In this document: in pieces, positions 660-52,141 of the stretch
Layout: the number at the start of each line of letters is the position of its first letter
How positions within the stretch are numbered: the first letter of the stretch is position 1
DNA from: a virus
Lineage: Duplodnaviria > Heunggongvirae > Uroviricota > Caudoviricetes
Virus record (IMG/VR): IMGVR_UViG_3300031760_000026
Strand: one strand, 5' to 3'
DNA: 64,000 nucleotides
Notes under the pieces: model-generated
Told to the model about the DNA's origin: nothing
Databases searched by the model: none
Seen by the model: the letters and a program-made list of their open reading frames with translations, nothing else
Position numbers and translations under genes: made by a program

Positions 660-1312
660 AGTCAATTAAAAAATATCCATAAACCAACTTAGAGATCACT
701 CATAATAAGTGCAATAGCATAATGGTTATTAAAAGACTAGTTTAAAAATATCCATAAACTAGCTTAGAGAGTTCTTATAAAAGGTATTATGGACGCTAAA
801 AAGTCTATTTGAAAATATCCATAAACCAACTTAAAGAGCTCCCATAATAGATACTAAAAAGCCTGTTTAAAAATATCCATAAACTAACTTAAAGAACTCT
901 TATAATAGATACTAAAAAGTATGTTTGAAAATATCCATAAACCAACATAAAGAGTTTCTATAATAGATACTAAAAAGCCCGTTTGAAAATATCCATAAAC
1001 CAACTTAAAGGGTTCCTATAATAGATACTAAAAAGCCCATTTGAAAATATCCATAAACCAACTTGGAAAGCTCCTATAATAGATACTAAAAAGCCCGTTT
1101 GAAAATATCCATAAACCAACTTGGAAAGCTCCTATAATAGATACTAAAAAGCCTATTAAAATATCCATAAATGAACTTAAAAGATTCTAGTAGATGCAAT
1201 AAATGCCAAAAAAGGCCTAATTGAAAATATCCATAAGCCAACTTAAAGGATTCTAATAACTGTAATAGATACTAAAAGGCCAGATTGAAAATATCCATTA
1301 AGTTAATTATTC
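660..1312. repeat. tandem array of ~11 direct repeats with a ~59-60 bp period (unit approx AAAATATCCATAAACCAACTTAAAGAGCTCCTATAATAGATACTAAAAAGCCCGTTTGA); candidate iterons/origin or binding-site array
   Basis: The core AAATATCCATAA recurs at ~672, 757, 817, 877, 937, 997, 1051, 1110, 1167, 1227 and 1290. The units are contiguous with no spacers, diverge only mildly, and sit immediately 3' of the 915-aa RNAP-like gene. Confidence 0.85.
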
Positions 1313-4870: not shown

Positions 4871-4944
4871 AGTCTTTTCCGCTCCGAAATATAAAAGGAG
4901 CTGCCATATCTCCTCTATTATAAGGAATGTATTTCTTGCGAATT

Positions 4945-6177
4945 TTAAGAATATACAAAACCACTTTCGTTGAAGTTTTTCTTCTGTTTAAGAGCTCTCG
5001 AGATAGCCAAGTCCAAAGGGCAACTGGATTTTAGCCGATAGTAATATAAATCTTTGTATGGAGTGTTCATCCGATCTATTCTTCCGGCCGACTGAACCAT
5101 AATTTTGTAAGAATAGTTCAATGAATAAAAAATTATCGTGTCGGTCTGTATGCAATTCCAGCCTTCTGCTCCGGCAGTATACTGCACCAAATATACCCAC
5201 TTTTCACCATTTGGAATGTACTCATGTTTATGCCCATTCCATTCGGCGACCTGAACACCGGGGCCATAATCAATAGATTTTAAAATATCCAATTCGTAAT
5301 CATAATTATAGAAGATTATTGTCCTAGGATGATTCTTCCTCAGTTCTAATATGGCTTCTACTCTACTTGGATCACTATTAATTACTCTCCTTGCTGTATA
5401 ACATAGTTCTGCAGCATTTACGATTGGGGAATCTGAAAATATATTCCATCTCTTTCCCATTACAAACTTATATGTTTCTTTGTCATAATCGACGGTAATT
5501 GTTTCATGATGTGTGACTGTTGGACGAGTATAGTCCATATTGATAAGGATCTTATTTCTTAGTTTAATCAATCGACCTTGGTCCAAATATCTATCAACTT
5601 GTGGAAACTTGGCAAACCTCTTGTATACAACATGCCTGGTTATGAACTCGCTTTTATTCTTGTAAAAACCATTTGCTACAAACACCGGCATGTAATCCAT
5701 CCATGTATCACCTGGAGTTGCGCTTAATAATATCCATCTATTCCTTTTGGCTATTTGCCAGAAAGATTTGGTCCACGCTCCAGATCCGACGACCCTTTGT
5801 TCATCAAATATAAAGAATGAGTCTTTCACATTAATGTACTTCTTAATGTTGTTCCAAGAATCAATCACCAATGACATCTGACCAAAATATAAAGAATCTT
5901 CATTATTTGAAATTAGAAATGGGGAGCATTCTTTTTCCCACTCTTTGGTATCTCTTTTTCTAGCAGTGGTAATAATATAAAGGTCTTTCGGGTTCTTCAT
6001 TGGATAATAGTCATCTTTTAAGCCCTTTGAAAACCCATCAAGTATGCCATTACACTCTTTTGTGAAAAAATATGCCAATGACGTTCTTGATTTGCCAGAC
6101 CCAACTCCTCCGCAAAGAATAGATCCATTACCCAATCGATCAACAGCATCCCATTGGTAATCATATAAAAAACTCAT
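4945..6177 (-). CDS. SF2 DEAD/DExH-box helicase
   Basis: Walker A is GGVGSGKS, motif II is FIFDEQRV (DExx) and motif III is LLSATPG. Helicase C-terminal-like region follows. Confidence 0.8.
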   Translation of the reverse strand: MSFLYDYQWDAVDRLGNGSILCGGVGSGKSRTSLAYFFTKECNGILDGFSKGLKDDYYPMKNPKDLYIITTARKRDTKEWEKECSPFLISNNEDSLYFGQMSLVIDSWNNIKKYINVKDSFFIFDEQRVVGSGAWTKSFWQIAKRNRWILLSATPGDTWMDYMPVFVANGFYKNKSEFITRHVVYKRFAKFPQVDRYLDQGRLIKLRNKILINMDYTRPTVTHHETITVDYDKETYKFVMGKRWNIFSDSPIVNAAELCYTARRVINSDPSRVEAILELRKNHPRTIIFYNYDYELDILKSIDYGPGVQVAEWNGHKHEYIPNGEKWVYLVQYTAGAEGWNCIQTDTIIFYSLNYSYKIMVQSAGRIDRMNTPYKDLYYYRLKSSCPLDLAISRALKQKKNFNESGFVYS

Positions 6178-14006: not shown

Positions 14007-14110
14007 AATTACATTTCCTCCTTATAAGTTTTTGGCAAAAATTAAAGAGGCTGGGAATTCCCAACCCCTCTCATTATTAACTATGTATTTTTTGCGAATT
14101 ACATCGCGGT

Positions 14111-16647: not shown

Positions 16648-16697
16648 GATTCAAATATAATTCCTGTCATTATAGACGGTGTAAAAGTTGCGGGTTA

Positions 16698-17237
16698 TTA
16701 GGATTTCTCCCAGCACCAAATAAAGTCGGAAATGGCCTTTGCTGTTTCCCAACAATAGACATTAGGAATTTGCATTTGGTAGAAATTTACTTTTGCCTCA
16801 AAGCATGGACTAAATGATCTAACATCATTACTTAATCGTTGACGTATTTTTTCAGGAGAATCTCCCCTTAATTCCATTCTCTTTTGGCATTCATCAAGAT
16901 CCACCAGAAGACGAATGGCAATTACTCCTTTATTTCCATGATACTTTTGCCTCAGATAATCAACTCCATATGGATCAATCACGTAAATATCATTTTGGTC
17001 AATTACTTCAGGAGTGACTCCATAGCGATGCCCATCGTATTCCGTATAGGCGCACATCTCACCAAGAGCATCAAACTCCTCATCAGACACAAAAATATGC
17101 CCTTCCTCATTTGGATAACGAGGAGGGCGTGTCGTGTAGGATTCAACAAGATTCAATCCATAATCACGCTCGAGGATTTTAGAAATAGTCGACTTGCCAG
17201 ATCCAGAAGGCCCGACAATACAGTAAATGTTTTTCAT
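16698..17237 (-). CDS. guanylate-kinase-like nucleoside monophosphate kinase
   Basis: GPSGSGKSTI (P-loop) ... SYTTRPPRYPNEEGHIFVSDEEF matches the Gmk signature S.TTR..R.GE.DG..Y.FV. Confidence 0.6.
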   Translation of the reverse strand: MKNIYCIVGPSGSGKSTISKILERDYGLNLVESYTTRPPRYPNEEGHIFVSDEEFDALGEMCAYTEYDGHRYGVTPEVIDQNDIYVIDPYGVDYLRQKYHGNKGVIAIRLLVDLDECQKRMELRGDSPEKIRQRLSNDVRSFSPCFEAKVNFYQMQIPNVYCWETAKAISDFIWCWEKS

Positions 17238-24424: not shown

Positions 24425-24590
24425 GAAATCAGCTCATCATGCCCAATACGAAGTATCTGATTTCTGCAATATACGTCTAGTCTCCTAAAAGTAAGAGGCG
24501 GAGAATATCGAAAATGGTCTAGTTTCTTTTAACAATTACAAGCAAGTTAATATCGAAGTAACCATCTTCTTCACTTCCGCCTCACTATAG
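24425..24590 (-). ncRNA. structured intergenic RNA candidate carrying the GAAGUAAC...ACUUCC hairpin (degenerate relative of ncRNAs A-D)
   Basis: Hairpin CGAAGTAACCATCTTCTTCACTTCCG, long-range complementarity GGCGGAG (24496) with CTTCCGCC (24574), and an 8-bp hairpin GAAATCAG...CTGATTTC at 24430-24468. No clear T-loop and no ORF. Confidence 0.3.
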
Positions 24591-24610
24591 GGGCTGTAAT
24601 TTTTGCGAAT

Positions 24611-25036
24611 TTATTTATCCTTTTTCTTAAACACATCCATCAACTTCAAGTCTGCCATGATCTGTTCTTCATTAAGCCAATTATTAGCTTGCATGAAAGC
24701 CACCATAGAATTAGGTTTGTTAGCTACTTCATGATCTTCGCACCAGTCTAAATATAATTCCTCGATCTGCATTCTTTGAGTAAAGAGAACCATACTCGGA
24801 CCAGAGTAAAATCCGACATCTTCTGGAAACTTACCATCATAGAGGCCGAAGACAATATGCTCTGCGAGTGCTAAAATATCAGACTTAGAGAAGCAGCAGT
24901 TATCGAGCTTCGTTTGATTAAGCGCCGAATCAAGAACCTCCTCCATATTGTCCTGCTGCTTCATGGCTCGGATTGTGTCATCCAAAAGTTCTTCGATAGA
25001 CTCATACTCGATATCAGTCATGCCTACTTCCCTCAC
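24611..25036 (-). CDS. hypothetical protein
   Basis: 141-aa acidic ORF. Confidence 0.4.
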   Translation of the reverse strand: MREVGMTDIEYESIEELLDDTIRAMKQQDNMEEVLDSALNQTKLDNCCFSKSDILALAEHIVFGLYDGKFPEDVGFYSGPSMVLFTQRMQIEELYLDWCEDHEVANKPNSMVAFMQANNWLNEEQIMADLKLMDVFKKKDK

Positions 25037-26452: not shown

Positions 26453-26995
26453 TTATAAACACCTATAATTTCCGTTAAGCCATTTTTCTTTTATTTGGTT
26501 CACCATTCTGCTTATAATGGTCTGAGATTTCCCGATATGCATAGCTATTTCTTTTTGAGTATAGCCATACATCTTTTCAAATATGATTTGCTTTTCTTTT
26601 TTCGTTAAGCTTTCAAGAAATTCTTTCACTTCTATGCCAGTTGTATTTAGTTGATAAGTTCCAAAAATATCATTTATCCGTTCAATATAGTCTTTTCCAT
26701 CATCTTCATCATTAAGCGGGGTATTGTAGGAAAATATCAATTCTTCTGGAATTTGATTCCCACCGCTAAGATGCCTCCAGTATTGATAGCATTCATTACG
26801 CATAACAAAATAAGTGTATGTGCTGAATGCATACCCTCGATTTGGATCATATGTCTTTGCAGCTTTGCATAATCCAATGGCGAGCAAATCATAGTATTCA
26901 TTAATGTCAAGATTCATCTTATTGGCGTATGAATATATCAAGTTATGGTTGTCGCTCACCAAATCTTGCTGATCTTTTGAAAGTGCTTCATCCAT
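26453..26995 (-). CDS. sigma-70 family RNA polymerase sigma factor (regions 2 and 4 only)
   Basis: Region 2.x-like GYAFSTYTYFVMRNECYQYWR and region-4 HTH GYTQKEIAMHIGKSQTIISRMVNQIKEK. 180 aa. Confidence 0.65.
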   Translation of the reverse strand: MDEALSKDQQDLVSDNHNLIYSYANKMNLDINEYYDLLAIGLCKAAKTYDPNRGYAFSTYTYFVMRNECYQYWRHLSGGNQIPEELIFSYNTPLNDEDDGKDYIERINDIFGTYQLNTTGIEVKEFLESLTKKEKQIIFEKMYGYTQKEIAMHIGKSQTIISRMVNQIKEKWLNGNYRCL

Positions 26996-27658: not shown

Positions 27659-27777
27659 GTTAGTAAGACTATCTGTCTCATTATAGTCATTGTAAATTTT
27701 GCGAAAATATCATCAGATATAGATGATTGCCACAATTGCAAGCATAAGAAGACCGAGCATTGCATATAGAAACTTCA

Positions 27778-28832: not shown

Positions 28833-28918
28833 TGTTTTATACTCCTTTCAAAAAATATAAGAGGATGCAACCCACTCAAGCGCACCCTCTTCATTATTAG
28901 CATTGTATTTGTTGCGAA

Positions 28919-29944
28919 TCAGAGATGGCTAGCAACACTGAATACAAACTTCCCGTATCGATAAACGAGATAGCCTGTAGGAATAAGAGGAAGAGAACCT
29001 GCAAATATCACTCCACCCTTAGTCCAGCCATGAGATTTAAGCCACCATGCAAGACGCTCAGCCTGAGGGGTCTCAGTGGCGATTGCAGAAGCTCTAGCGC
29101 GATCATTTGTATCCTGTACACGCACAAACTCCTCATTATCCTGGGCCATTAAGACACAATCGGCTTCTTCTTCAGTGCGTTTTGCCTGAATATCAGTAGT
29201 GATCCTGCTTTTAGCGTCCTCAAGATCTTTCTCAAGGTCAGTTACTGCCTTAGAAGTCTTCTCGTCAATCCTCCGCTTCTCCTTGGCAATCTTTTCTTCC
29301 ATGCTGCGGATGGATTCACGCTTCTTTTTCTCAAATTTCTCCTTCTCAGAAGCCAGCTGTGCCTCAAGAGCATTCTTTTTCTCAGTTGCTTTCTTGATGG
29401 TCTCATTTTTAGCTTCTTCGGCCGCATGCTTGAGTTTCAGAGCAGTATCGGAGATATTATCGTCAGCAAGCGCGCAAAGCTTCTCCTGAGCTTCCCACTT
29501 CTCGGTTGCATCAGCGATCTCTTTATCAAGCCCCTCAACCACATCGTCATAATTAACAGAGGCCTTGAATGCAGAAATCGAGTCCTCCATATCTTGCTCA
29601 ATAGACAGAAGCTTATCTTCGTATCCGAGATTGGCTTTGAATTCCTGAAGAGCTTTCTCGCCCTCGGAATATAAACGGTTCTTCTTACTTGCAAAGCCAC
29701 TGGTCTGCTTGTAACTAGCAAGCGCTTCGGCGATGCCCTTCTTTTCACGAGACAGAACGGCCTTTTTTACCTCAATATCATGCTTGGCCTTTATATACTT
29801 TTCGATATCCTCGGAAGTATGCTCTGCCACGGCCATGTCGAGAGCCCTCTTAGATTCAAATCTAGAATCTGCATAGTCCCCAACGAGTTTGAATGTCGCG
29901 AAGAATCCGAGCATTGCCAATTCGGATACTAATTTCATGTTCAT
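28919..29944 (-). CDS. hypothetical coiled-coil protein with N-terminal signal/anchor
   Basis: 341 aa. Hydrophobic N-terminus, long Lys/Glu/Ala-rich heptad region, hydrophobic C-terminal segment. Confidence 0.4.
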   Translation of the reverse strand: MNMKLVSELAMLGFFATFKLVGDYADSRFESKRALDMAVAEHTSEDIEKYIKAKHDIEVKKAVLSREKKGIAEALASYKQTSGFASKKNRLYSEGEKALQEFKANLGYEDKLLSIEQDMEDSISAFKASVNYDDVVEGLDKEIADATEKWEAQEKLCALADDNISDTALKLKHAAEEAKNETIKKATEKKNALEAQLASEKEKFEKKKRESIRSMEEKIAKEKRRIDEKTSKAVTDLEKDLEDAKSRITTDIQAKRTEEEADCVLMAQDNEEFVRVQDTNDRARASAIATETPQAERLAWWLKSHGWTKGGVIFAGSLPLIPTGYLVYRYGKFVFSVASHL

Positions 29945-31739: not shown

Positions 31740-31821
31740 TTTCTCCTTTTCAAAAATATAAAAGAGAAGCAATCATTTCTGAAAGCTCCTCTTTCATAAT
31801 AGGGTTTGCAATTTTTGCGAA

Positions 31822-32100
31822 TTAGACAAATATCCAACTCGGATCAGTTCGCTTTGGATTTCGGTTAGAGTCATCGAGCACGGCAATTCCCATAATTCGC
31901 TCAACATTGCCAATTCCATGGTTTTCATATTTAACACCGAAGAATTCGCCTTTGATCCATGTTACGATTTGAAAATCAGGAAGATCAAGGCCTTTTCTTA
32001 CCGTGTGACCGTTCAAATAGAATCGATCACCAACATGAATATCATAGGCCTCATCCAGATTCCTCGCCTTAGAGTTGTTCTTCTTTTTTGTACTTTTCAT
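31822..32100 (-). CDS. hypothetical protein
   Basis: The start is refined to MKSTKKK (ATG 32100) to avoid an out-of-frame overlap with the upstream gene. Confidence 0.35.
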   Translation of the reverse strand: MKSTKKKNNSKARNLDEAYDIHVGDRFYLNGHTVRKGLDLPDFQIVTWIKGEFFGVKYENHGIGNVERIMGIAVLDDSNRNPKRTDPSWIFV

Positions 32101-37599: not shown

Positions 37600-37827
37600 T
37601 TAAATAAGCCCTAAATTTTTCAGAGTTTCCAAGTCAATAAACCGCTTTAAATAGTCAGCGTATGGCATGAGCATTGCTTTGCAAATAATCTGGATTAGGC
37701 GAACTTCTTGGTCAATTTCAAGCCGACGTTGATAACTTGGTCCAGCTTTAAGCTCCTGGTTTAAAGAATCAAGTAAGTTTGCAGCATTCTGAGATAATTG
37801 GCCAATGCGATAAAAAGGGATTGCCAT
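37600..37827 (-). CDS. hypothetical small protein (paralog of 38539..38775)
   Basis: It ends ...DLETLKNLGLI, while the paralog ends ...EDVLRNLGLL. Similar length and helical pattern. Confidence 0.4.
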   Translation of the reverse strand: MAIPFYRIGQLSQNAANLLDSLNQELKAGPSYQRRLEIDQEVRLIQIICKAMLMPYADYLKRFIDLETLKNLGLI

Positions 37828-37917
37828 GCTTATTCTCCTTTCAAAAAATAAAAAGCCCTTAGCATTTCTGCCAAGAGCTTCTCCTCTGTTTCATTATTAG
37901 GGATGTATTTTTTGCGA

Positions 37918-38124
37918 TTAATCTGCATCATCTGAATAGACGCGGGATGTGTCAACTTCTCCGTAAATATCATCATAGTCATCATCCGCATACTCTGCTT
38001 CCATGACAATCTCGTCTCCATCCTTATAAACTTCGACAATCATGTCGCCGTCTTCGAAGCTCTCAAGAAATTCTCTAGGCATTCGGTCCACACTCCTTTC
38101 ATGGATGCCATCATTATAGCACAT
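37918..38124 (-). CDS. small highly acidic protein (possible DNA mimic)
   Basis: 68 aa with runs such as EAEYADDDYDDIYGEVD. It carries its own upstream terminator and TATAAT cassette. Confidence 0.35.
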   Translation of the reverse strand: MCYNDGIHERSVDRMPREFLESFEDGDMIVEVYKDGDEIVMEAEYADDDYDDIYGEVDTSRVYSDDAD

Positions 38125-38154
38125 ATGAAACGAAAGTGTAGGATTAATTGTAAA

Positions 38155-38484
38155 TTAAATATAATCTTCCCAGAATTCCTTTGGGATCGGTTTCATTCTA
38201 AGTGCCCACATAAGCTTTCTGACGGGGATGATAGGGTAATCCTTATCCGTAGCATGCTCCGAAAAGTATTGCGGGAATTTTGGATGTAGGTAAATATCAT
38301 TAGCAAGCCATGGATCGATCTTATCCCAATAGACATACTTAGCAGTGAATCTGCGCTGCACAACAATCAGCCCAAGCCCGTCTTGCTCAAATAGTGTGCC
38401 AATCTTATACACAGGATGCTCTAAAAATATCACTTCTCCGTAGAGTTGTGTAGTGAGTTCCGGCTTTTCGTAAAAATATTTCAT
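38155..38484 (-). CDS. hypothetical protein
   Basis: 109-aa ORF, aromatic-rich. Confidence 0.35.
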   Translation of the reverse strand: MKYFYEKPELTTQLYGEVIFLEHPVYKIGTLFEQDGLGLIVVQRRFTAKYVYWDKIDPWLANDIYLHPKFPQYFSEHATDKDYPIIPVRKLMWALRMKPIPKEFWEDYI

Positions 38485-38538
38485 GAGGTAAAAAATATAA
38501 GAAGTGTAAAAAAAAAGAGGACGCTTGTAAGGTCCTCT

Positions 38539-38775
38539 TTATAATAATCCTAGATTCCTTAAAACGTCCTCTCCAACGATAGGTTTGAGTACATCGACAT
38601 ACGGATAAACAGCCATGTTAACAATTTTATTAACCAATTTGGCATCGCGCTCGATCTCCTTAGCTCGCTTTGGGGTAACTCCCGAAGCTAGCTCCTCATG
38701 ATACTCCTGCAATACATTCATTGCGTTAACAAGAATTTCGCTTACTCTGTTAAGTGGTAATGCCATTTTATACAT
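38539..38775 (-). CDS. hypothetical small protein (paralog of 37600..37827)
   Basis: See the paralog. Own promoter cassette and terminator. Confidence 0.4.
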   Translation of the reverse strand: MYKMALPLNRVSEILVNAMNVLQEYHEELASGVTPKRAKEIERDAKLVNKIVNMAVYPYVDVLKPIVGEDVLRNLGLL

Positions 38776-38852
38776 CTCCTTTCATTACAAGGAATGCAAA
38801 ATATGCGAAAAAAGAAAGCCCATGTATAAAACACAGGCTTCCAAAAAAAATA

Positions 38853-39233
38853 TCACTTAATCCAGCAAGATGACCCATAAGACAAGATGATCTCAACTGG
38901 CAGGTCAGCATTTGCCTGAGTAGCCAGGTCATTAATCAGAAGATCTCCAAGTTTTCCGAGATCATAAGGATGACAGTTGAGAATCATGTTCTGGTAAAGC
39001 CCTTCGTTCCAATGCTCAAGAACCTCAATGCCATCCCAAGTAGGTTTCGGCAGGTCATTATTCATGGCCGTCTTAGCCACTGCAAATAGTTTAGGAATAT
39101 AATCTTTTGCGATGTCGGGAACTTTTCCTTTGAGCAACTTCCATGCCACGATTGATCCAGCAGCAACTGTGATGACTACTCCGCCAATGATGAGTTCTTT
39201 TTTGTGGTCCTTTGCAAACTTTTTAATATTCAT
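38853..39233 (-). CDS. membrane-anchored hypothetical protein
   Basis: N-terminal TM helix ELIIGGVVITVAAGSIVAW. Confidence 0.35.
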   Translation of the reverse strand: MNIKKFAKDHKKELIIGGVVITVAAGSIVAWKLLKGKVPDIAKDYIPKLFAVAKTAMNNDLPKPTWDGIEVLEHWNEGLYQNMILNCHPYDLGKLGDLLINDLATQANADLPVEIILSYGSSCWIK

Positions 39234-39248
39234 CTCATAATCCTCCTT

Positions 39249-39446
39249 TTAATTAATCACAAAGCCAATTTTGCCAACGGGCTTGTTTGAATCATCCTCG
39301 TTATTTTCAATCTCTCGACGTTCGCCTTTAGAGTCTTTAGTTTTCTTATCCAGTTGCCTCTTAAGACTTTTAGCTCCCTCAAGTAACACATTGTGAGTAA
39401 ACACACAAATAGAATATACGCCAATCCAATAAACTACTTTCTGCAT
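39249..39446 (-). CDS. small membrane protein
   Basis: 65 aa. N-terminal hydrophobic helix, Lys/Glu-rich tail. Confidence 0.3.
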   Translation of the reverse strand: MQKVVYWIGVYSICVFTHNVLLEGAKSLKRQLDKKTKDSKGERREIENNEDDSNKPVGKIGFVIN

Positions 39447-39560
39447 AATGTCCTCCTCAAAAAATATAAGAAGCGTAGTCTTTCTTAAAGCCGGCCTCCA
39501 TTCCGTCTATACGCTTCTACTATAGAGTCTGCAAAACTTGCGAAAAAGAAAGGCCGTGTA

Positions 39561-39833
39561 TTAAGCGGCCAATCCTTTTTCTTGAAGATACTTCGTGATT
39601 TTATCTTGCTCGAAATCAAATGACAAAATTACCACGACCGGTGCGGCATTACCAGGATCATACCATCCAGGCTCGTCCTTATAAATTATCCATCTGCGTT
39701 CTCCTCTTTTTCCTCCAGGACCGCGTCCAAATATTTTTGTAAGAACCTCGATAGTTTCCTGTAATTTACCAGACCGAATTCTAACAAATTTAGCAAAGAA
39801 ATCCATTTCAAACCTCCTAAAAGTATTCTTCAT
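39561..39833 (-). CDS. hypothetical small protein
   Basis: 90 aa with its own terminator-promoter cassette. Confidence 0.35.
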   Translation of the reverse strand: MKNTFRRFEMDFFAKFVRIRSGKLQETIEVLTKIFGRGPGGKRGERRWIIYKDEPGWYDPGNAAPVVVILSFDFEQDKITKYLQEKGLAA

Positions 39834-39904
39834 TATAAGAGGTGAAAAATATGCGAAAAAAAAGAAAGGAAGTTGCGTAAATTATCAACTTCCAAATCTT
39901 TTAT

Positions 39905-40213
39905 TTACCGTATAGAACCAGCTGCCGTTGCTTGGTATGCGCCATAGTCGGCATGAGCCTCTCGGTTTCTACGTTCTGCATGATCTAAATCCGCAAAATA
40001 TAATTTATTCCAGAACGCATTCGCATAAGCATACTCAACATACTTTTTGCCGAAAATATGCTTCTCATGAATGTATTCCTTTGAAACAATTACTTTATGT
40101 GGATTCTCGATTATGTCTCCGCAATACCAGACCTCATCTCCAACTTTAGCATGCACAGGCAATGACCCATCATTAAGTCTATACCGCCTTAAAAGATCTT
40201 CATAGTCAATCAT
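39905..40213 (-). CDS. hypothetical small protein
   Basis: 102 aa with its own cassette. Confidence 0.35.
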   Translation of the reverse strand: MIDYEDLLRRYRLNDGSLPVHAKVGDEVWYCGDIIENPHKVIVSKEYIHEKHIFGKKYVEYAYANAFWNKLYFADLDHAERRNREAHADYGAYQATAAGSIR

Positions 40214-40274
40214 TTAGATTGCCTCCTTTCTATTAAAGAAAGTGTTTATCTTGCGAAAAAAAGAAAGGCTCTGT

Positions 40275-40583
40275 TTAAGAGCCAATCTTTTTAATAATTA
40301 TCTCATATCCAAGGGATTTCAACTGTGCTCTAAGTTCAATCAGGTCTTTAGGCTCGATAATAGTTAATCTTTCAATAATTAGTTCATTTGAAAGAGTGCC
40401 AACCACCTCTTTATCGTCTGGAAACCATTTCAAAAAAGTCTTTTGTTTAGGGATATACTTCCCATTTTTTACTTTTGAAATAATTGCCGGATCTACAGAA
40501 ATAGCATTGGCCATCGCTCTCAATGAACCATATTTAGAAATTTCATCTTCTACTCGCTTAATAACATATGCATTATAGGTCAC
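40275..40583 (-). CDS. hypothetical small protein
   Basis: 102 aa with its own cassette. Confidence 0.35.
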   Translation of the reverse strand: MTYNAYVIKRVEDEISKYGSLRAMANAISVDPAIISKVKNGKYIPKQKTFLKWFPDDKEVVGTLSNELIIERLTIIEPKDLIELRAQLKSLGYEIIIKKIGS

Positions 40584-40652
40584 AATAAATCTCCTCCTTT
40601 CTATTAAAGGAGCTGTATTAATTGCGAAAAAGAATGAGCCCTGTAATAGAGC

Positions 40653-40967
40653 TCATGCTTCGTAGATAGTAAATATCACATCCACTGGGTATTTTTCTTC
40701 TTCACCTTTTACCTGATACGTAAAATGTCTGTGCTCTTCATAGTAGCTTTTGCCCGTAGTCGATCTAGTTCCGAATTCTCGCTTAAGGCTATGTAGATTC
40801 TCCGTGATAGTCATTTCGTACTTAGAAGCTATGACCTTTTCATAGTCATAGTCAGCCAAGAGCTCAAATGCTCTAAAAGAATCCTCTGCAACGCCAACGA
40901 GATCCGTGAAGATCGGATAATCGCCAAAGTTAAACAATGCCACAACAACAAACGCTCCAGTAATCAT
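40653..40967 (-). CDS. hypothetical small protein
   Basis: The start is refined to MITGAF (ATG 40967) with GGAGG upstream. The track's N-terminal extension reads through two terminator/promoter cassettes. Confidence 0.35.
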   Translation of the reverse strand: MITGAFVVVALFNFGDYPIFTDLVGVAEDSFRAFELLADYDYEKVIASKYEMTITENLHSLKREFGTRSTTGKSYYEEHRHFTYQVKGEEEKYPVDVIFTIYEA

Positions 40968-41315
40968 GCTTATAATCCTCCAGTTTTGTTTTAGTACTTC
41001 TCTACTAAAACACCTGTAAAATATGCGAAAAAAAATAAGGATTGTTAGCTTCGAACTAACGTCTCTCGACCTAAATATCATCGAGCGTTCTACCATTGAA
41101 CTATTACATGGTCTAGGGAATTTCACCCTTCGCCTGGCATAACCCAGCGATTCCATTCTCCTCATTATAAGGAGTGTAAAATATGCGAAAAAGAAAAAGA
41201 GATGTATGGCTTGAACATACAATACCACCTTGCCAAGTGGCGTTTTACCAATTATAACTAATCTCCTTCATTATAAGAACTGTTAAACTTGCGAAAAAGA
41301 AAAGCCACTGTTTTA

Positions 41316-41585
41316 TTAGTGGCCTTTCTTTCTGATTCTAATCAGTTTGAGAGCAGCATAAGCATACTCTTTCAGAGTCTTCTTAACGTCACGTCTGATC
41401 TGTTTCTTCCTGGCGCTGTCCACCATGCTCATCAGATCCAGGTAAGCCATCATGTCGTCGATAGTCTTGAATCTCTCCTCTTTCGTCATTCCTTCATTGG
41501 AGAGAGCCTCAGACATCTCGTCAACTTTAGCCCCCAGGATTTTCATGAATTCGGCAGCCCGCTCCTCGGTCCAAATATCATTCAT
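41316..41585 (-). CDS. hypothetical small helical protein
   Basis: 89 aa. Confidence 0.35.
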   Translation of the reverse strand: MNDIWTEERAAEFMKILGAKVDEMSEALSNEGMTKEERFKTIDDMMAYLDLMSMVDSARKKQIRRDVKKTLKEYAYAALKLIRIRKKGH

Positions 41586-41646
41586 TGTTTAGTCCTCCTT
41601 TAATAGATTTTATGTCTCTCTATTAAAGAGGGTGTTTTATTTGCGA

Positions 41647-42300
41647 TTACTTAGATGCTTTGGGTTTAGAGCTGTCTTTTTTCTTATGAGGAATTGCTGA
41701 AGAAACTGCAACTGTGATTAATGCTGCAGGAATAATGATAGGTGATAAAAGAATACCACCAACAATTATTGCTCCAGTTTGCACCTTATCCGTTTTATAA
41801 GTATCTCTCGCAGCTTCTTTGCCATATTTAGCAAGTATTTTTTGATCAGCATATTTCTGCCCCTCTTCATGGTACTTGCTAAAATTCTTTGCGTAATTAC
41901 TGCTAGCGGTTTCATATTCTTCAAGTTCTGCGGCTAGTTTTGAATCTTTATGACTCTTTTGTTCGAGCCTATCGAAGTAATCGCTTTGTGCATCCGCAGA
42001 TTCCATTTTGTCCAGGCCGTATTTTTTCTCAAAAGAATCGATTATCTGCATATACCCCTGCATCGTTTCATCTTTGCTAAGCAGCGCATTTGTTTTTCGG
42101 GTTGCGATTTTAAAACGTTCATCTGAAATCTGTTTGTGCGAGGGTCTATTATCTATCCCAAATTCTCCGTATCTCTTCTTTCCGGCATTTGTAAGAGTGC
42201 CATCAGGATTCTGATACCTTCTTACGCCCCATTTTTGGCCTAAAATACCATGATGAGAAAGATCTTTTTCTCTATGCATTTCATACCCGTATAATTCCAT
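41647..42300 (-). CDS. paralog 1 of the MELYGYE(I/M)HREKDLSHHGILGQKWG N-terminal family; C-terminal TM segment
   Basis: Shares the N-terminal ~25 aa and the SD-ATG region (AGGAGAATTCAAAATGGAATTATAC) with the other two paralogs. C-terminal hydrophobic helix, then a Lys-rich tail. Confidence 0.5.
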   Translation of the reverse strand: MELYGYEMHREKDLSHHGILGQKWGVRRYQNPDGTLTNAGKKRYGEFGIDNRPSHKQISDERFKIATRKTNALLSKDETMQGYMQIIDSFEKKYGLDKMESADAQSDYFDRLEQKSHKDSKLAAELEEYETASSNYAKNFSKYHEEGQKYADQKILAKYGKEAARDTYKTDKVQTGAIIVGGILLSPIIIPAALITVAVSSAIPHKKKDSSKPKASK

Positions 42301-42311
42301 TTTGAATTCTC

Positions 42312-43046
42312 CTAAATAAGATCTTCCTTGCTTAAAGTGTAAACAAGGTCATTTACATATATGCCATAATCACCATATGTAGAGTCGATTACTTTTTTAT
42401 CGCCATAAGTTTTGACTATCTCATCAGTGACCTTAGAGCAAACATTTACGTAATTTGACACCGCAGAATCTATCGCATCTAATTTCTTTTTAAAATCTGG
42501 ATACTTACTAGCCGCATCATAATATGCTAAATCCATGGCATCATCCCAGAAAACCTCTTTAGGTGTATCTCCATATTCCTCAAGGAATGCTTTTTCTCCT
42601 CCGACGGATTTAATGAATTCTTTTTTAGCCGAATCCAAATATTTATCTGGGTCAGCATCCAGCATGGAATAAGACTCGTCTTGTATTTTTCTTGCTAATT
42701 CTTTATCCTCGGCAGAAGACAACTGCGCCTTATTCAATTTTTCTTTAGCATCTAATACACTAGCAATTTGCTCTTTACTAAAATAATTCTTTTTAAAATC
42801 CTTTCGAATCTCATTTGCTATTTCAGTATGAGTTTTTCCAGGATTATTCTTTTTAGCTTTATCTATGCCTTTTCGGAATCGTTTTTCTTTTAAGCTTTGT
42901 CTCCACCCAGCCTTCTTTTCTGAAGCAGAATGGTCACTAGCATCTAAAGGATATGGAGGACCGTTTTGTTTACCCCATTTCATTCCTAAAATACCATGAT
43001 GAGAAAGGTCTTTTTCTCTATGTATTTCATATCCGTATAATTCCAT
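42312..43046 (-). CDS. paralog 2 of the MELYGYEIHREKDLSHHGILG... family; unrelated C-terminal domain
   Basis: The start is refined to the ATG of MELYGY (43046); the track start was an upstream TTG. The first ~50 aa are nearly identical to paralog 3, then diverge. Confidence 0.5.
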   Translation of the reverse strand: MELYGYEIHREKDLSHHGILGMKWGKQNGPPYPLDASDHSASEKKAGWRQSLKEKRFRKGIDKAKKNNPGKTHTEIANEIRKDFKKNYFSKEQIASVLDAKEKLNKAQLSSAEDKELARKIQDESYSMLDADPDKYLDSAKKEFIKSVGGEKAFLEEYGDTPKEVFWDDAMDLAYYDAASKYPDFKKKLDAIDSAVSNYVNVCSKVTDEIVKTYGDKKVIDSTYGDYGIYVNDLVYTLSKEDLI

Positions 43047-43095
43047 TTTAAATTTCTCCAAATAAATTTGTGATTGATTATTGAATTGCTAACTC

Positions 43096-43130
43096 AAAAA
43101 AAGAAAAGGCTCTGTTTTAGAGCCCTCTCT
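43096..43130 (-). terminator. rho-independent terminator; same sequence as the one at 45556
   Basis: GGCTCTGTTTTAGAGCC hairpin with a flanking T-run. AAAAAAGAAAAGGCTCTGTTTTAGAGCC is repeated verbatim at 45556-45585. Confidence 0.6.
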
Positions 43131-43135
43131 TTTGT

Positions 43136-43351
43136 TTAGACAAGATCCTTCAATAGCTTCGAAAGATCATCTTTGCTCAATGCCGCCGTTACACTCAACC
43201 GGACATTCGCATTTTCACCATCAAACTTCACAGAGATCGGCTCATTAAACGTGATGCCAAGATCGACACCAAGTTTCTTCGCCACGATCTTTCTCACAAG
43301 TTTCGTGATGATTCCCTGCACAAATCCAGTCTGAATTTTCACTTCGTCCAT
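43136..43351 (-). CDS. hypothetical small protein
   Basis: 71 aa. Confidence 0.35.
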   Translation of the reverse strand: MDEVKIQTGFVQGIITKLVRKIVAKKLGVDLGITFNEPISVKFDGENANVRLSVTAALSKDDLSKLLKDLV

Positions 43352-43444
43352 TTTAGACTCCTTTCTTATAATGAATTCTTGTCATTATAAGGAATGTAAA
43401 ACGTGCGAAAAAGAAGCGGAATTGATAAACCGCTTCTTAGTTAA

Positions 43445-43834
43445 TTAGTCTACTATGATTGCTTCCGGAAAATCTCTTCTGAAATCCTCCATTGTTATTC
43501 CATACGTGTCAATTATTTCACGCACTTTTGCAATGGAGATTTCTCTCTTATTCTTCGGTTTCTTCATAAACAGCTTATTAACTTTTTGTCTATCAATTTC
43601 CGCTTTCTTCTTTTGTTCGAAAGTAATAGTCCCTTTGAGTAAGTCCAGCATCAGTTCATTTGTTTTCTCGAAATCTAAATCTCTAAGTCTAGCAAGTTCT
43701 GCTTCGGCATATTTTTTATCGGCAAGACGCTTTTGCTCTTTAACGGCTTGCTTATAATCTACAACTCCAGCAATTAGGCTAGCACAAACAGACCCGATTC
43801 CGATTATCAGATTTGCTTTTGCTTGGTAATTCAT
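43445..43834 (-). CDS. membrane-anchored coiled-coil protein
   Basis: N-terminal TM helix, Lys/Glu-rich. Confidence 0.35.
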   Translation of the reverse strand: MNYQAKANLIIGIGSVCASLIAGVVDYKQAVKEQKRLADKKYAEAELARLRDLDFEKTNELMLDLLKGTITFEQKKKAEIDRQKVNKLFMKKPKNKREISIAKVREIIDTYGITMEDFRRDFPEAIIVD

Positions 43835-43919
43835 TATCTATTACATCCCCTTTCATTATAAGAGATGTAAAATATACGAAAAATAAAGAGTCCATGCATA
43901 AAGCACAGACTCTTTATCT

Positions 43920-44276
43920 TTATTTGAGTAATCTCATGCTGGAAAGAATTTTGCCCAAAGGTTCTCCATTTTTCTTTCGTCTCTCGATCTCCAGATACTC
44001 ATTCGTGGTCGGCTTCCGTTTAAGCTCGTAGTAGCATTTCAGCGACATATCATAGATGAACTTCTCTTTCAAGTTTCTTTCTTCTTTCAGTTGAGCATTT
44101 CTACTGACGGCTTTAAACACTTTTTCACCAGTAGCAAGCATCACTGGAACAAGAACAACTATGTATTCTTTATTTTCATCCCAAAATCGCTTAGCTTTTT
44201 CAGCTTGATCGGAAAGCCAATTCTGAACTTCCCATTTCTTAATCTTAAGCTTTTCTTTGATTTCTTCCTTTTTCAT
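43920..44276 (-). CDS. hypothetical protein
   Basis: 118 aa, Lys/Glu-rich with one hydrophobic helix. Confidence 0.35.
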   Translation of the reverse strand: MKKEEIKEKLKIKKWEVQNWLSDQAEKAKRFWDENKEYIVVLVPVMLATGEKVFKAVSRNAQLKEERNLKEKFIYDMSLKCYYELKRKPTTNEYLEIERRKKNGEPLGKILSSMRLLK

Positions 44277-44342
44277 TATTTATTCCTCCTTCTAAGAGAT
44301 TTATCTCTCTATAAAAAGAGGTGTAAATGTTGCGAAATATAA

Positions 44343-44627
44343 TTACTTAATATCGGTTTCAGGAATGTCAATAGCGTGAGTATTATTCAGAGCCTCGTCA
44401 AATTTTTTGTCGTCATTTAACAGCATTTCTTCCCAGAAATCATATAAATCATACTGGCCATCAGAATCTGAAATGCTAACAAAAAATGCTGATGGATCAT
44501 CTTTATAATAGTTCTTTCCATATGATACTGAGAAAATATACTTGTGATTATAGACAAAATATGTACGAACCAAATCGTTAGGATGTCTTTTTCGTACGAT
44601 TTTTAAAGCTTCTTCATATGTAATCAT
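44343..44627 (-). CDS. small protein downstream of and translationally coupled to paralog 3; candidate immunity or partner protein
   Basis: 94 aa. Its ATG overlaps the stop of 44624..45514 (ATGA coupling). Confidence 0.4.
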   Translation of the reverse strand: MITYEEALKIVRKRHPNDLVRTYFVYNHKYIFSVSYGKNYYKDDPSAFFVSISDSDGQYDLYDFWEEMLLNDDKKFDEALNNTHAIDIPETDIK

Positions 44628-45514
44628 TTATATCCTCCCACAACATATTGCAATGTCTTTTCTGCTTCAGCCTTTATCGATGCGTTTGAAAAATCAATAA
44701 CCCTAAGTGGCGAATAACGACCAGAACTAATATAGCGAGATATGTCAGTCACGGAGTTAATTTGCGGATCTATTATTGTAACCACGCCGTCCAATGTCTT
44801 TTCGTAATTAATATAGTGGCCGTTGGCCCCGGCACGAATATGAATTACTCCAGTTGATCCATTCTTAATAGTCTTAAACATATCATACATGCTTTCTTGT
44901 TTTCCGCATTCTCGTATATCTAAGTTATCAAAAATCGAATTAAATACTCTATAGTCTCTTCCATGACCGGCCATTCCGCTTATTTCATCTATCCCATTAA
45001 ATGGTAATGCTGTGGTATTCATACCAAACATAGAATTAAGAATATAGCTGGTAGTTGTATGAAAACAATTAGCTCTTCCGCCAGCAGTTCCTTTATTCTT
45101 TGCATTAATTCTTTTCACCATTTTTAGATCTATATCGTCGATAGATTTACCAATTTTGCCGCTTGCAAATGGATCTTTACCTCCAGTTTGAATATCTACA
45201 GCTGATTTACCATTCTTAACATAGTCGCCAATATTATTCAATGCTCCAGATTTATAAAGACCATACCCAATTAATCCAGCCGCAACAACGAAAGCACCGA
45301 TGACAATTGCTTTCTTTTGCCCTGATGTTAATTTAAGCCTTTTATTATCGCTTTTGTCAAGACTTTTTCTCCACCCAGCCTTCTTTTCAGAAGCAGAATG
45401 GTCTTTAGCATCTAGAGGATACGGAGGACCGTTTTGTTTGCCCCACTTTTGGCCTAAAATACCATGATGAGAAAGGTCTTTTTCTCTATGTATTTCATAC
45501 CCGTATAATTCCAT
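44624..45514 (-). CDS. paralog 3 of the MELYGYEIHREKDLSHHGILG... family; TM helix plus candidate papain-like Cys-His-Asp peptidase domain
   Basis: The shared N-terminal 50 aa are followed by a TM helix (AIVIGAFVVAAGLIGYGLY) and a domain carrying GGRANCFHTTTSY (Cys), GANGHYINY (His) and VVTIIDPQ (Asp). Confidence 0.45.
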   Translation of the reverse strand: MELYGYEIHREKDLSHHGILGQKWGKQNGPPYPLDAKDHSASEKKAGWRKSLDKSDNKRLKLTSGQKKAIVIGAFVVAAGLIGYGLYKSGALNNIGDYVKNGKSAVDIQTGGKDPFASGKIGKSIDDIDLKMVKRINAKNKGTAGGRANCFHTTTSYILNSMFGMNTTALPFNGIDEISGMAGHGRDYRVFNSIFDNLDIRECGKQESMYDMFKTIKNGSTGVIHIRAGANGHYINYEKTLDGVVTIIDPQINSVTDISRYISSGRYSPLRVIDFSNASIKAEAEKTLQYVVGGYK

Positions 45515-45555
45515 TTTGAATTCTCCTAAGGAAATAGTTTTGCATGCTATTAAAA

Positions 45556-45590
45556 AAGAAAAGGCTCTGTTTTAGAGCCTTTTCTTTCAG
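45556..45590 (-). terminator. rho-independent terminator (duplicate of the 43096 terminator)
   Basis: GGCTCTGTTTTAGAGCC hairpin plus T-run, immediately upstream of the paralog 3 RBS. Confidence 0.6.
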
Positions 45591-45597
45591 TAGTCCA

Positions 45598-46062
45598 TTA
45601 AATTACTCTCGGTTGTAAAGCCTTGATCCAGGCGAGACATTTGCTCGAGAGGATCGTAGTTTCTTCGAGTTTACCAGTCACCACAACCAACACTGCCGTG
45701 CCACCAATGGTCAAACCAATTTTCGCGAGCCCGATGATTGCATCCATCTTTGCAGCCTTCAGCTTGTCTTTTGCTTCTTTTTCAGCAAGCTCCTGGCGCT
45801 TCTGGTCCTGTTCAATCTTGGCAGCGGTTTCTTTTTCCCGCCGTTCAAGATCCGCTTCTTCCATCTTGCGCTTATGCCTGCTGTCCAAGTCCGCATTGCA
45901 AGCCGCAGACTCCTCGTGGAATGCTCTCAGTAGCTCATGGTAATTCTTATTTGCCACGGTGTACGCTTCAGTTGTCGGATCGAGGTTCTTAAGTACCTCC
46001 TGAATACGATCTAACTCTTTCAGCATATCTTCCTGATTCATGCCTATTCTATCCCCTTTCAT
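45598..46062 (-). CDS. coiled-coil protein with C-terminal TM helix
   Basis: 154 aa. Confidence 0.35.
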   Translation of the reverse strand: MKGDRIGMNQEDMLKELDRIQEVLKNLDPTTEAYTVANKNYHELLRAFHEESAACNADLDSRHKRKMEEADLERREKETAAKIEQDQKRQELAEKEAKDKLKAAKMDAIIGLAKIGLTIGGTAVLVVVTGKLEETTILSSKCLAWIKALQPRVI

Positions 46063-46179
46063 TTAATAGGTTTCTACTATAGAAGGTGTAAAAGTTGCGA
46101 CACATAAAAAGAGACCTACTTTCGTAAGCCTCTTAAATCATGCTATTAAAATATCACTTGCCATGGACCCCTACGTATG

Positions 46180-46900: not shown

Positions 46901-47046
46901 TATTTTCTTGTCGCGACGATTGGAGATTAACTCTGCTTACGCTAATTGTCAACTGTTCCCATCATATTTCTATTGCAATCTGGCAACAAATATGCTATGC
47001 TCGCAATGGTGGAGCAAAAATCTTTAACAAACTTTAGGAGGGATTT

Positions 47047-48135: not shown

Positions 48136-48145
48136 AGCTTTTATT

Positions 48146-48177: not shown

Positions 48178-48188
48178 AGAAGAGGCCC

Positions 48189-49138: not shown

Positions 49139-49141
49139 ATA

Positions 49142-49216: not shown

Positions 49217-49258
49217 AAATATAAGGACCTATCATATAGACAGGCCCTTAGCTTGTGA

Positions 49259-51414: not shown

Positions 51415-51669
51415 CTTGCCAAGCCCTCCTTAAAAAAATAAAGAGCCTATGACTTTCATAGACTCTTTATCTGCCCGTTTAAAACTGAGTATACTCGATA
51501 GAAGAATTGAAACCGATCACCATTAACCTGATAAACTCGATGATCTTTTCTTTCATCTTTCGTATCAACTCCTTTCTTATCCTTCTATTTTACAAAATGT
51601 ATTTTTTGCGAATTGGATAAGAAAGAAAAATAGAAAGCCCATGTTTTCATAGACTTTCTATTTAGAAGG

Positions 51670-51924: not shown

Positions 51925-52141
51925 TTTATAATACCTCCTAAAAGTTTTTATTATCCTTCTACTATAGGAGGTGTATATTTTGCGATTTAAAGCGAAAAAG
52001 AAAAGGCTGTGTATTTTTAACAGCCTTTTACTTCCATTTTGAATTTTTTAGTGCTTATCATTATCATCGTCCGAAGCAACTATGCAAGCATAATCAACGA
52101 CTAGAATAATAATGATAAGCACTATTAAAGCAGCTTTCATG

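Follow-up and report, generated by a model that had tools for sequence, protein, structure and literature searches.

In a 64,000-nucleotide (nt) stretch of viral DNA (IMG/VR virus record IMGVR_UViG_3300031760_000026, class Caudoviricetes; hereafter the window), a short motif recurs in front of small genes that are packed between positions 37600 and 46100, which raises the question of which RNA polymerase, if any, reads it. An initial annotation, made from the sequence alone, described these genes as about 20 independent units, each with a terminator hairpin and a motif containing a perfect TATAAT and a weak -35, and suggested dependence on an activator or on the sigma factor encoded by the phage. 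In the present analysis, the motif is found to accompany a 915-amino-acid (aa) protein, predicted to be a single-chain two-barrel RNA polymerase, and it is considered moderately probable that the motif is the promoter of this phage enzyme, with transcription starting right after its A/T-rich hexamer.

Because nearly all open reading frames (ORFs) of the window are on the minus strand, the motif is read here as the reverse complement of the plus-strand form first noted. It is a rigid three-block motif, TCGCA-N6-ACA-N5-TATAAT-GA, with 23 copies in the window, all on the minus (coding) strand and all intergenic or overlapping merely a stop codon (Table 1). The pattern TCGCA-N6-ACA-N5-TATAAT with up to two mismatches gave 25 matches (0.68 +/- 0.72 in shuffled sequences), namely, the 23 true sites and two of chance grade. 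When a 36-nt weight matrix was started from the obvious copies, it converged on exactly 23 sites scoring 31-43 bits, as compared to 2.9 bits for the next minus-strand site, 6.8 for the top plus-strand site, and 13.7 for the top shuffled site, and none of the 23 copies has an insertion or deletion in the spacing between the three blocks. All 22 positions listed in the initial annotation are among them, and one copy had been missed (16663-16698, a CCGCA variant). The statement that every unit has a perfect TATAAT was too strong, as this holds for 8 of the 23 hexamers; the others are TATAGT, TTTAAT, TAATAAT-type, TTTTAT, and TTTAGT. Position 6 of the hexamer is an invariant T, position 2 is an A in 17 of the 23 copies, and five hexamers (TTTAAT, TTTTAT, or TTTAGT) are without this A.

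The copies are distributed unevenly: 14 are situated in the array at 37.6-46.1 kb, seven at 4.9-31.8 kb, and two at 51.6-52.0 kb, and the structural region (52-64 kb) contains none. A hairpin followed by a T-run directly precedes 12 of the 14 array copies, as well as the copies at 51990 and 51616 (copies are cited by their upper coordinate), and the T-run extends into motif positions 1-6. Copies with no such element in front are those at 44340, 41651, and 37922 and the seven in the replication region (4.9-31.8 kb); the latter seven stand at the front of longer operons, among them those of the replication module and of the polymerase. The terminator hairpins are plain GC stems followed by T-runs, and terminator-like sites are enriched in the array region (17 vs 6.3 expected). 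The repeat is thus promoter-like, as had been proposed: strand-specific, intergenic, just after terminators, and just before a Shine-Dalgarno sequence (SD) or ATG. Its sequence, rigidity, and strand and position bias are direct observations.

Table 1. Motif copies and associated features of the window, with positions on the 64,000-nt stretch.
Feature	Position	Strand	Score or support	Context
Motif copy (TGTCGCAACTTTTACACCTTCTATAGTAGAAAC)	46070..46105	-	33.9 bits	After terminator 46109-46134; before ORF 45598-46062
Motif copy, TTTTAT	44305..44340	-	38.1 bits	No terminator upstream; before ORF 43920-44276
Motif copy, CGTA variant, TATAAT	43849..43884	-	39.1 bits	After terminator 43879-43921; before ORF 43445-43834, whose SD begins 3 nt past the hexamer
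Motif copy, TATAAT	43378..43413	-	39.2 bits	After hairpin and T-run; before ORF 43136-43351
Motif copy, TTTAAT	41616..41651	-	32.7 bits	Before ORF 41316-41585
Motif copy, TATAAT	41264..41299	-	40.6 bits	Ahead of tRNA-like RNA 1
Motif copy, TATAAT	41158..41193	-	42.8 bits (best match in window)	Ahead of structured RNA 2
Motif copy, TTTAGT	40998..41033	-	32.0 bits	Before ORF 40653-40970
Motif copy, TTTAAT	40597..40632	-	39.1 bits	After terminator 40634-40656; before ORF 40275-40583, whose SD begins 4 nt past the hexamer
Motif copy, TTTAAT	40226..40261	-	37.1 bits	After terminator 40267-40283; before ORF 39905-40213
Motif copy, TATAAT	39826..39861	-	38.5 bits	After hairpin and T-run; before ORF 39561-39809
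Motif copy, TATAGT	39513..39548	-	36.2 bits	After hairpin and T-run; before ORFs 39249-39446 and 38853-39233
Motif copy, TGTAAT	38778..38813	-	38.4 bits	After terminator 38814-38842; before ORF 38539-38766, whose SD begins 3 nt past the hexamer
Motif copy, AATAAT	37887..37922	-	35.9 bits	Followed by leader hairpin 37850-37883 and ORF 37600-37827
Motif copy outside array	51955..51990	-	40.3 bits	After terminator; before ORF 51670-51924
Motif copy outside array	51581..51616	-	31.3 bits	After terminator
Motif copy	31790..31825	-	35.2 bits	Before ORF 31344-31772
Motif copy	28887..28922	-	35.8 bits	Before DUF6353 gene 27778-28704 (Pfam)
Motif copy	27674..27709	-	32.3 bits	Upstream of operon with phage sigma gene
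Motif copy, TATAGT	24578..24613	-	37.8 bits	
Motif copy, CCGCA variant	16663..16698	-	33.5 bits	
Motif copy	14067..14102	-	32.9 bits	Heads replication module (DUF6353 genes, primase-polymerase)
Motif copy	4911..4946	-	37.2 bits	Heads operon of 106-aa protein, Cas4-like nuclease, and polymerase
Single-chain two-barrel RNA polymerase, 915 aa, predicted	1307..4054	-		Proposed reader of the motif
Phage sigma factor	26453..26995	-	Sigma70_r2 1.3e-11; phrog_351 9e-32	
Candidate host-type promoter, TTGACA-N17-TAATCT	46924..46952	-	Read from sequence	
tRNA-like RNA 1	41195..41268	-		Cloverleaf; 8-nt anticodon loop UUGGCAAG; no encoded CCA
Structured RNA 2	41030..41163	-		Roughly 125 nt; 5' GAGGA pairs with 3' UCCUU

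The motif is widespread in related phages. The exact pattern TTCGCA-N5-TACA-N5-TATAATGA, for which few chance matches were estimated, was found in at least 120 IMG/VR contigs, many of which contain it 2-4 times, and as many as 19 matrix matches per 14 kb occur in the motif-bearing contigs listed. When the window and the loci listed were pooled, 519 distinct sites were obtained in 130 loci, none of which has sites on both strands, and conservation extends from T6 to A34, including G31 (0.91) and A32 (0.85) just past the hexamer. Counterparts of the window's primase-polymerase, helicase, Cas4-like nuclease, and 915-aa ORF are present in the motif-selected fragments, and no homologues of its sigma, Ro60, and SPFH genes were found there. 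Core genes of the phage type were present in 36 of the 58 motif-selected fragments of at least 10 kb, the co-occurrence sample being limited and these contigs being readable only in part.

Among named phages, Arthrobacter phage Kardesai has ten copies of TCGCGTAAATTACA-N5-TATAAT-RRA, each after a hairpin with a T-run and before a small gene, and Streptomyces phage LibertyBell (59% GC) has six copies of CTCGCAGAAAAAACA-N5-TATAATGAGAC; both keep the blocks and spacing of the window. Variant forms are found in Faecalibacterium phage Oengus, with at least 14 copies of ACGCGAAAAATACA-N5-CTTTATGGA (hexamer CTTTAT) beside the integrase and before the Cas4-polymerase operon, and in Lactococcus phage P092, which keeps TTTTACA-N5-TATAATGA without the CGC block. 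All four encode the polymerase, and the polymerase-less controls Lactococcus phage 949 and Faecalibacterium phage Epona give 0-1 loose matches, i.e., the level of shuffled sequences. The motif tracks the polymerase rather than the host, and this co-occurrence is observed across host phyla. It is located 813-1059 nt upstream of the polymerase start (mode approximately -905) in 64 of 91 polymerase loci, never on the opposite strand, and the hexamer before the polymerase operon in related loci is TTTTAT in 35 cases and TATAAT in 25. The polymerase is the only protein with a transcription or DNA-binding domain that is common to the window, Kardesai, LibertyBell, and Oengus. Two features that would be looked for in a promoter specific to a phage polymerase are thus present, namely, a long, strand-specific repeat of fixed spacing and its co-occurrence with the polymerase in five reference phages.

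The 915-aa protein has an N-terminal helix-turn-helix (HTH) domain (residues ~60-120) and a C-terminal one (~883-914), with Pfam matches to HTH_23, HTH_38, and, weakly, RdRP, and a catalytic motif ADFDGD at residues 509-514; phrog_4291 matches it over its full length (1153 bits). The top PDB matches of its AlphaFold model (predicted local distance difference test score, pLDDT, 75.5) are QDE-1 (E 4e-8) and RDR2 (1e-4), and lower-ranked Foldseek matches include Pol IV, Pol II, and bacterial beta'. By predicted fold and catalytic motif, the protein is therefore assigned as a polymerase. At least 8000 homologues were counted in protein databases, and a protein 39-50% identical to that of the window is encoded by the final early-arm gene in 250 deposited phages, whose hosts are Arthrobacter, Gordonia, Streptomyces, Rhodococcus, Microbacterium, Curtobacterium, Lactococcus, and Faecalibacterium. 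The protein has been proposed previously as a putative polymerase and group signature, with HHpred results and the DxDGD motif reported and promoters unmentioned (bioRxiv 10.1101/842583). In a profile scan, relatives in bacterial assemblies were located mostly in contigs of Lachnospiraceae, Blautia, Ruminococcus, Faecalibacterium, and Butyrivibrio, from which it follows that the host of the window is probably a gut or rumen clostridial bacterium; a host of the Lachnospiraceae/Blautia type is indicated by similarity only.

If this enzyme reads the motif, its DNA-binding residues should vary along with the bases. Polymerase N-termini were aligned and compared with the block at motif positions 6-10 of the promoter before each polymerase operon, the block of P092 being taken from its array promoters. 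The recognition helix of the window polymerase is ESTVR (residues 113-117). Of 39 distinct helix variants of the form (E/D)S(S/T)(V/I)R, 37 are paired with a CGC block, and of 10 other helices, 8 are paired with a non-CGC block (37:2 vs 2:8; Fisher p = 4e-6, with counts uncorrected for shared ancestry). The divergent helices are EGFVR, DKTIG, VSTVV, VSTVA, WSTVK, VSTFR, ESTIN, and PGSVT, and the blocks paired with them TCGTA, TCACG, TAACC, TCACC, TGGCG, GTGTA, and TTTTA. The covariation itself is observed; since helix and block have changed together in several separate lineages, the aligned sequences suggest that the polymerase reads the upstream block directly with its own HTH.

Could a sigma-70-family factor read the motif instead? 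For such factors, an A at position 2 of the -10 element is almost indispensable, and many relatives have TTTTAT or CTTTAT, with T at this position. The observation that the -35 is weak was borne out, as the motif copies have no usable -35 at all. In a consensus scan, -35/-10 pairs were not enriched in the array region (26 vs 28.9 expected), and none of the motif copies is among the pairs listed at 16-18 bp spacing. TTCGCA, the sole conserved upstream hexamer, is 14 bp from the A/T-rich hexamer in 23 of 23 copies, which is too close for a -35. As judged from these sequences, the motif does not appear to be a sigma-70-type promoter: a -35 and a consistent position-2 A are lacking, and indirect evidence (below) speaks against a start about 5-9 nt downstream. 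The ORF that had been suggested to encode an alternative sigma is a genuine sigma-70-family protein, and promoters without a normal -35 would suit such a factor. That it directs the host core polymerase to the motif is nevertheless hardly credible, since no sigma homologue was found in Kardesai, LibertyBell, Oengus, the 120 motif-bearing IMG/VR loci listed, or 80 polymerase-bearing genome loci. In addition, the sigma gene is itself downstream of the motif copy at 27709, and the start geometry and position-2 hexamers count against an alternative sigma-70-family factor no less than against the primary one. The sigma gene is co-transcribed with that of an SPFH/Band-7 protein (3e-33; 25433-26995, minus strand), and neither was found in the relatives examined. 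As the structural genes at 52-64 kb are without the motif, the sigma factor could serve the late genes of this phage; this factor and a host-type promoter are candidates for the transcription of the structural genes.

The position of the transcription start is suggested by what follows the hexamer. At 11 sites in 11 loci, a tRNA or tRNA-like gene that ends in a terminator T-run begins 0-5 nt past the hexamer, with 1-2 nt the usual distance, and two further promoter-tRNA-like units of this kind are present in P092. The sole SD is 0-5 nt past the hexamer in 52 of 445 ORF-linked sites, as it is in the window units at 38813, 43884, 40632, and 40261, and the ORF behind the copy at 4946 starts 9 nt past the hexamer. 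Since a start 6-8 nt downstream would cut into these RNAs and SDs, we infer that transcription begins immediately after the hexamer, with G31/A32 as the likely initiating purine. This geometry resembles T7-class rather than sigma-dependent promoters. A hairpin promoter of the N4 type was also considered and is not relied on here, complementarity of positions 20-24 with 33-37 being only weakly enriched (36% vs 25% at the best pair).

The start geometry also bears on an alternative in which the host RNA polymerase with its primary sigma would transcribe from the motif, the TCGCA and ACA blocks would bind a conserved phage activator or sigma-appropriating factor, as MotA/AsiA do in T4, and the phage polymerase would be reserved for late genes. 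It draws on the TATAAT consensus of the hexamer in the lineage of the window, on the location of the motif before typical early/middle genes, including the polymerase gene itself, and its absence from 52-64 kb, on the precedent of late-gene transcription by YonO, and on conserved proteins of no known function that might supply the factor, e.g., the three DUF6353 proteins and the 106-aa protein. It is considered unlikely: the TTTTAT and CTTTAT hexamers are without the essential position-2 A; tRNA-like genes and SDs at 0-5 nt would be truncated by a start at 6-8 nt; phages of Actinobacteria and those of Firmicutes share the upstream blocks; the CGC block varies together with the polymerase helix; and no DNA-binding or sigma-like domain was found in the other conserved proteins. 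The DUF6353 paralogues are encoded at 27778-28704, 12398-13324, and 14111-14929 (minus strand), and two of them recur in the replication module of Kardesai, LibertyBell, or Oengus.

Several points weigh against a promoter read by the phage polymerase. RNA polymerase activity of the family is a prediction only, and the confidence of the model is moderate (predicted template modelling score, pTM, 0.51). In the lineage of the window the hexamer consensus equals the sigma-A -10 consensus, and the host RNA polymerase might therefore use some copies. The polymerase gene is located behind its own promoter, so that the cascade needs a separate first step. No motif was found in 27 of the 91 polymerase loci with a relaxed pattern, and 4 of the 49 helix variants break the covariation rule, whose counts are not independent of phylogeny. 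Lastly, by analogy with YonO, which transcribes late genes in one long late operon (PMC5467207), structural genes would be expected as targets, yet those of the window are motif-free.

In the mechanism proposed for the phage polymerase, I) its N-terminal HTH (helix ESTVR) would contact the TCGCA block; II) another part, possibly the conserved C-terminal HTH, would contact ACA or the hexamer; III) the A/T-rich hexamer (TATAAT or TTTTAT) would be the melting region; and IV) RNA synthesis would begin at the conserved G or A right after it (motif positions 31-32). The array would then consist of 14 short terminator-insulated units, many of them single-gene, that are each re-initiated by the phage enzyme to express fast-evolving small proteins and two tRNA-like RNAs. 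Because the same promoter heads the polymerase's own operon, positive feedback would follow the first dose of polymerase, for which the candidate host-type promoter at 46924-46952, read-through, or delivery with the virion are possibilities; packaging of the polymerase in the virion is pure speculation. The wider proposal, for which the case is about evenly balanced, is that a two-barrel core and sigma-like HTH modules in one polypeptide form, together with the three-block promoter, a self-contained system that is very common in gut and soil phages. Such a system would start after a TATAAT/TTTTAT box, drive early, replication, and its own genes as well as leaderless tRNA-like RNAs that need no 5' processing, and have a specificity that can be reprogrammed via a five-residue helix.

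The candidate promoter at 46924-46952 stands in front of a Cro-like HTH gene (46592-46900, Pfam HTH_26), with the integrase gene, from which it is divergent, on its other side; it is a possible entry point for the host RNA polymerase. A candidate extended -10, TGCTATAAT, is present at 38113-38121 (minus strand), 30 nt before ORF 37918-38082; both have normal host-type geometry, unlike the 23 motif copies. The 142-aa protein encoded behind the former (46180-46608) was considered as an activator and rejected, with no Pfam domain and no counterpart in actinophages.

Some features accompany individual promoters or the polymerase gene. Predicted leaders that start with a hairpin, a U-rich stretch, and an SD follow the copies at 37922 (hairpin 37850-37883), 31825, 28922, 14102, and 4946. 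Their consensus is ...TTATATTTTTTGAAAGGAG, and such a leader is also present in Oengus (L140, ~27800). The arrangement resembles a terminator right after the promoter, and roles in 5' stabilisation, attenuation, or enhanced translation are conceivable. A half-motif, ACA-N5-TATATT without the CGCA block, is located at ~38490-38520 (minus strand) after a terminator and upstream of ORF 38155-38484, which has no SD before its ATG; the half-motif may represent a promoter that has decayed or a variant of it. The polymerase gene is directly followed by a 58-bp tandem repeat (8.5 copies, 83% identity), which extends over 796-1298 and, in degenerate form, to ~650; this repeat could be an origin or packaging region. 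A 77-aa ORF downstream of the repeat (163-396) is conserved beside the polymerase in 76 of 80 genome loci, and Kardesai and LibertyBell have different short repeats upstream of their polymerase operons.

With regard to the array itself, the span 37600-46100 contains 14 motif copies, 20 ORFs, and two RNA genes, from which it follows that several units have two or three genes; an array of small genes is indeed present, and the independence of each gene had been overstated. Its proteins have almost no matches to Pfam and PHROG families of known function, and a megablast of the array against GenBank phages gave no match. Three paralogous genes (44624-45514, 42312-43046, and 41647-42300; minus strand) follow terminators without any motif. 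They have a common N-terminus, MELYGYE(I/M)HREKDLSHHGILG(Q/M)KWG, and the latter two match the DUF7211 N-terminal motif; a near-identical terminator (GGCTCTAAAACAGAGCCTTTTCTTTTTT) precedes both 44624-45514 and 42312-43046, and in one relative (L141) DUF7211 proteins are encoded among head genes. The conserved N-terminus of the polymerase (HYGTPRHSGRYPWGSG) was considered as a DUF7211-type motif like that of these paralogues, and Pfam gave none.

The two stretches that had been taken for empty or degenerate cassettes (41050-41160 and 41200-41260) both encode tRNA-like RNAs. RNA 1 matches the Rfam tRNA model end to end (39.4 bits, threshold 29; model positions 1-71 at 41196-41267), begins 1-2 nt past the hexamer, and ends in a T-run that enters the next promoter; ARAGORN finds it at a relaxed threshold and rejects it by default because of its anticodon-loop length. 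RNA 2 is predicted to fold into D-like and anticodon-like arms, the latter with a 9-nt loop, and a T arm; two extra hairpins and a U-run at its end complete the structure. Its match to the tRNA model is partial (31.8 bits; model positions 8-63 at 41044-41103), comprises the D, anticodon-like, and T arms only, and leaves ~45 nt of extra 5' structure; a homologue with one additional hairpin is found in IMG/VR locus L110. Units of promoter, tRNA-like RNA, and T-run recur in the phage group (loci L053, L062, L069, L082, L090, L091, L094, L095, L102, L110, L034, and L079, and L223 at ~23600-24100). The RNAs of the group start 0-5 nt past the hexamer and have a purine-rich 5' acceptor strand, no encoded CCA, and often an 'anticodon' loop of 6, 8, or 9 nt; decoys, primers, or Ro60 partners are possibilities for their function. 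Bacterial Ro60 proteins bind Y RNAs with tRNA-like modules, and ORF 20431-22029 (minus strand) of the window is a Ro60 orthologue (TROVE 1.6e-31, Ro60 vWA domain, phrog_850 'RNA-binding protein'). RNA 2 was accordingly considered as a Y RNA and rejected, with no Rfam support at E <= 1.

The reading of the array as a moron-like accessory region was not supported, as the same promoter serves the replication genes and the polymerase operon, and an array of non-conserved small genes is present at the same genome position in lytic relatives. A common promoter and a syntenic array in lytic relatives fit an early region better than lysogenic-conversion morons, and the array reads better as a fast-evolving early region of this phage type. 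The location of the array also bears on whether the repeats are promoters at all. Stoperator-like repressor sites, integron-like recombination sites, or priming sites of the primase-polymerase would account for copies that are numerous, asymmetric, and in a single orientation, as stoperators are, for the array adjoining a divergently oriented tyrosine integrase gene (47047-48135), and for array genes that are not conserved between relatives. Such non-promoter functions are very improbable in view of the fixed A/T hexamer and conserved initiating purines, and of the position of the motif, which almost always has a terminator on one side and an SD or an RNA gene on the other, also before replication genes and the polymerase operon. 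Moreover, the motif is no less present in lytic relatives that have neither integrase nor repressor, the hairpins are not attC-like, and the integrase has an adjoining tRNA-fragment attP, as ordinary phage integrases do. An integron-like cassette array was rejected specifically on the terminator-like hairpins, the generic Phage_integrase family of the integrase, and the motif in integrase-less lytic phages. The tRNA fragment, a 3'-tRNA-like sequence (GGGGTTCGACTCCCATCATCCGCTCCACCA) at ~48145-48178 just downstream of the integrase gene (both plus strand), probably represents the core of an attP by which the phage integrates into a host tRNA gene, and motif-bearing phage genes flank integrase and attP on both sides, which shows the window to be unintegrated. 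Between the integrase and structural genes there are five standard tRNA genes (Met, Gln, Gly, Leu, and Pro; 49063-50469, minus strand), as is ordinary for phages.

In a literature search on the motif sequences, the promoters of these phage clusters, and the polymerase family, no description of the motif was found, the coverage being incomplete and an earlier description possible. Promoters specific to phage polymerases are a known kind; within the literature that could be searched, no account was found of a three-block promoter combined with an HTH-flanked two-barrel polymerase and with covariation of the two, as deduced here from sequence comparison. RNA polymerases of the single-chain two-barrel type (YonO, crAss gp66, and those of P23-45) were discovered recently, and the present predicted family is very large, comprising phages of Actinobacteria and of gut and rumen Firmicutes. 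The consensus, the predicted start, and the helix-base covariation make the enzyme activity, the promoter code, and the role of the HTH directly testable. If true, the reading would provide a rule by which early promoters could be annotated in phage genomes by the thousands, and possibly a compact orthogonal expression system for Gram-positive bacteria.

Among known systems, the middle promoters of T4 combine a MotA box with a sigma-70 -10, need host sigma-70, and start ~7 nt past the -10. They are similar in having a -10-like hexamer with a conserved box nearer than a -35 (here TTCGCA, 14 bp upstream) and different in that no MotA or AsiA homologue was found here and the putative start site is incompatible. 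The host-takeover module of SPO1, which uses sigma-A promoters with normal -35 and -10, likewise consists of ~20 small genes that are poorly conserved and many of which have a strong promoter, an SD, and a terminator to themselves, whereas the array described here has no -35 and a geometry wrong for sigma-A. Morons have host-type promoters, are expressed in prophages, and are scattered insertions; they share with the array units a self-contained promoter, one gene, and a terminator, while here a general early/middle phage promoter that is not host-type is used and the array is syntenic in lytic and temperate relatives.

Closer counterparts are phage-encoded polymerases. YonO of SPbeta and gp66 of crAss-like phages are also single polypeptides with a DxDGD loop that are related to multisubunit or RdRP types; YonO serves one long late operon and gp66 is packaged in the virion, while in the present family candidate promoters head many short early units and HTH domains are found at both ends. 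The virion and non-virion polymerases of P23-45 are single-chain two-barrel enzymes as well, each tied to a conserved motif of its own ahead of early genes, and there, too, the motif occurs in those relatives that have the polymerase (PMC10770324). They differ in that no sequence similarity was detected, no terminal HTH has been reported, their motifs are AT-rich and GC-rich, and their start sites and occupancy by chromatin immunoprecipitation were measured (PMC10770324). Promoters of the T7/T3/SP6 class are similarly long, near-invariant, of fixed spacing, on the coding strand only, and reused before many short units. Their A/T-rich stretch ends at the start and is followed by purines (...TATA|GGGAGA in T7; ...TATAAT|GARA here), and the specificity elements of the polymerase co-evolve with the promoter. 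T7 RNA polymerase has a Pol-I-like fold, unlike the predicted two-barrel (QDE-1/YonO-like) fold with HTH domains, and the motif described here comprises three separate blocks over ~30 bp, with a start site that is deduced. If the phage polymerase does read the motif, the array would work in the same way as the early transcription of T7, N4, and P23-45.

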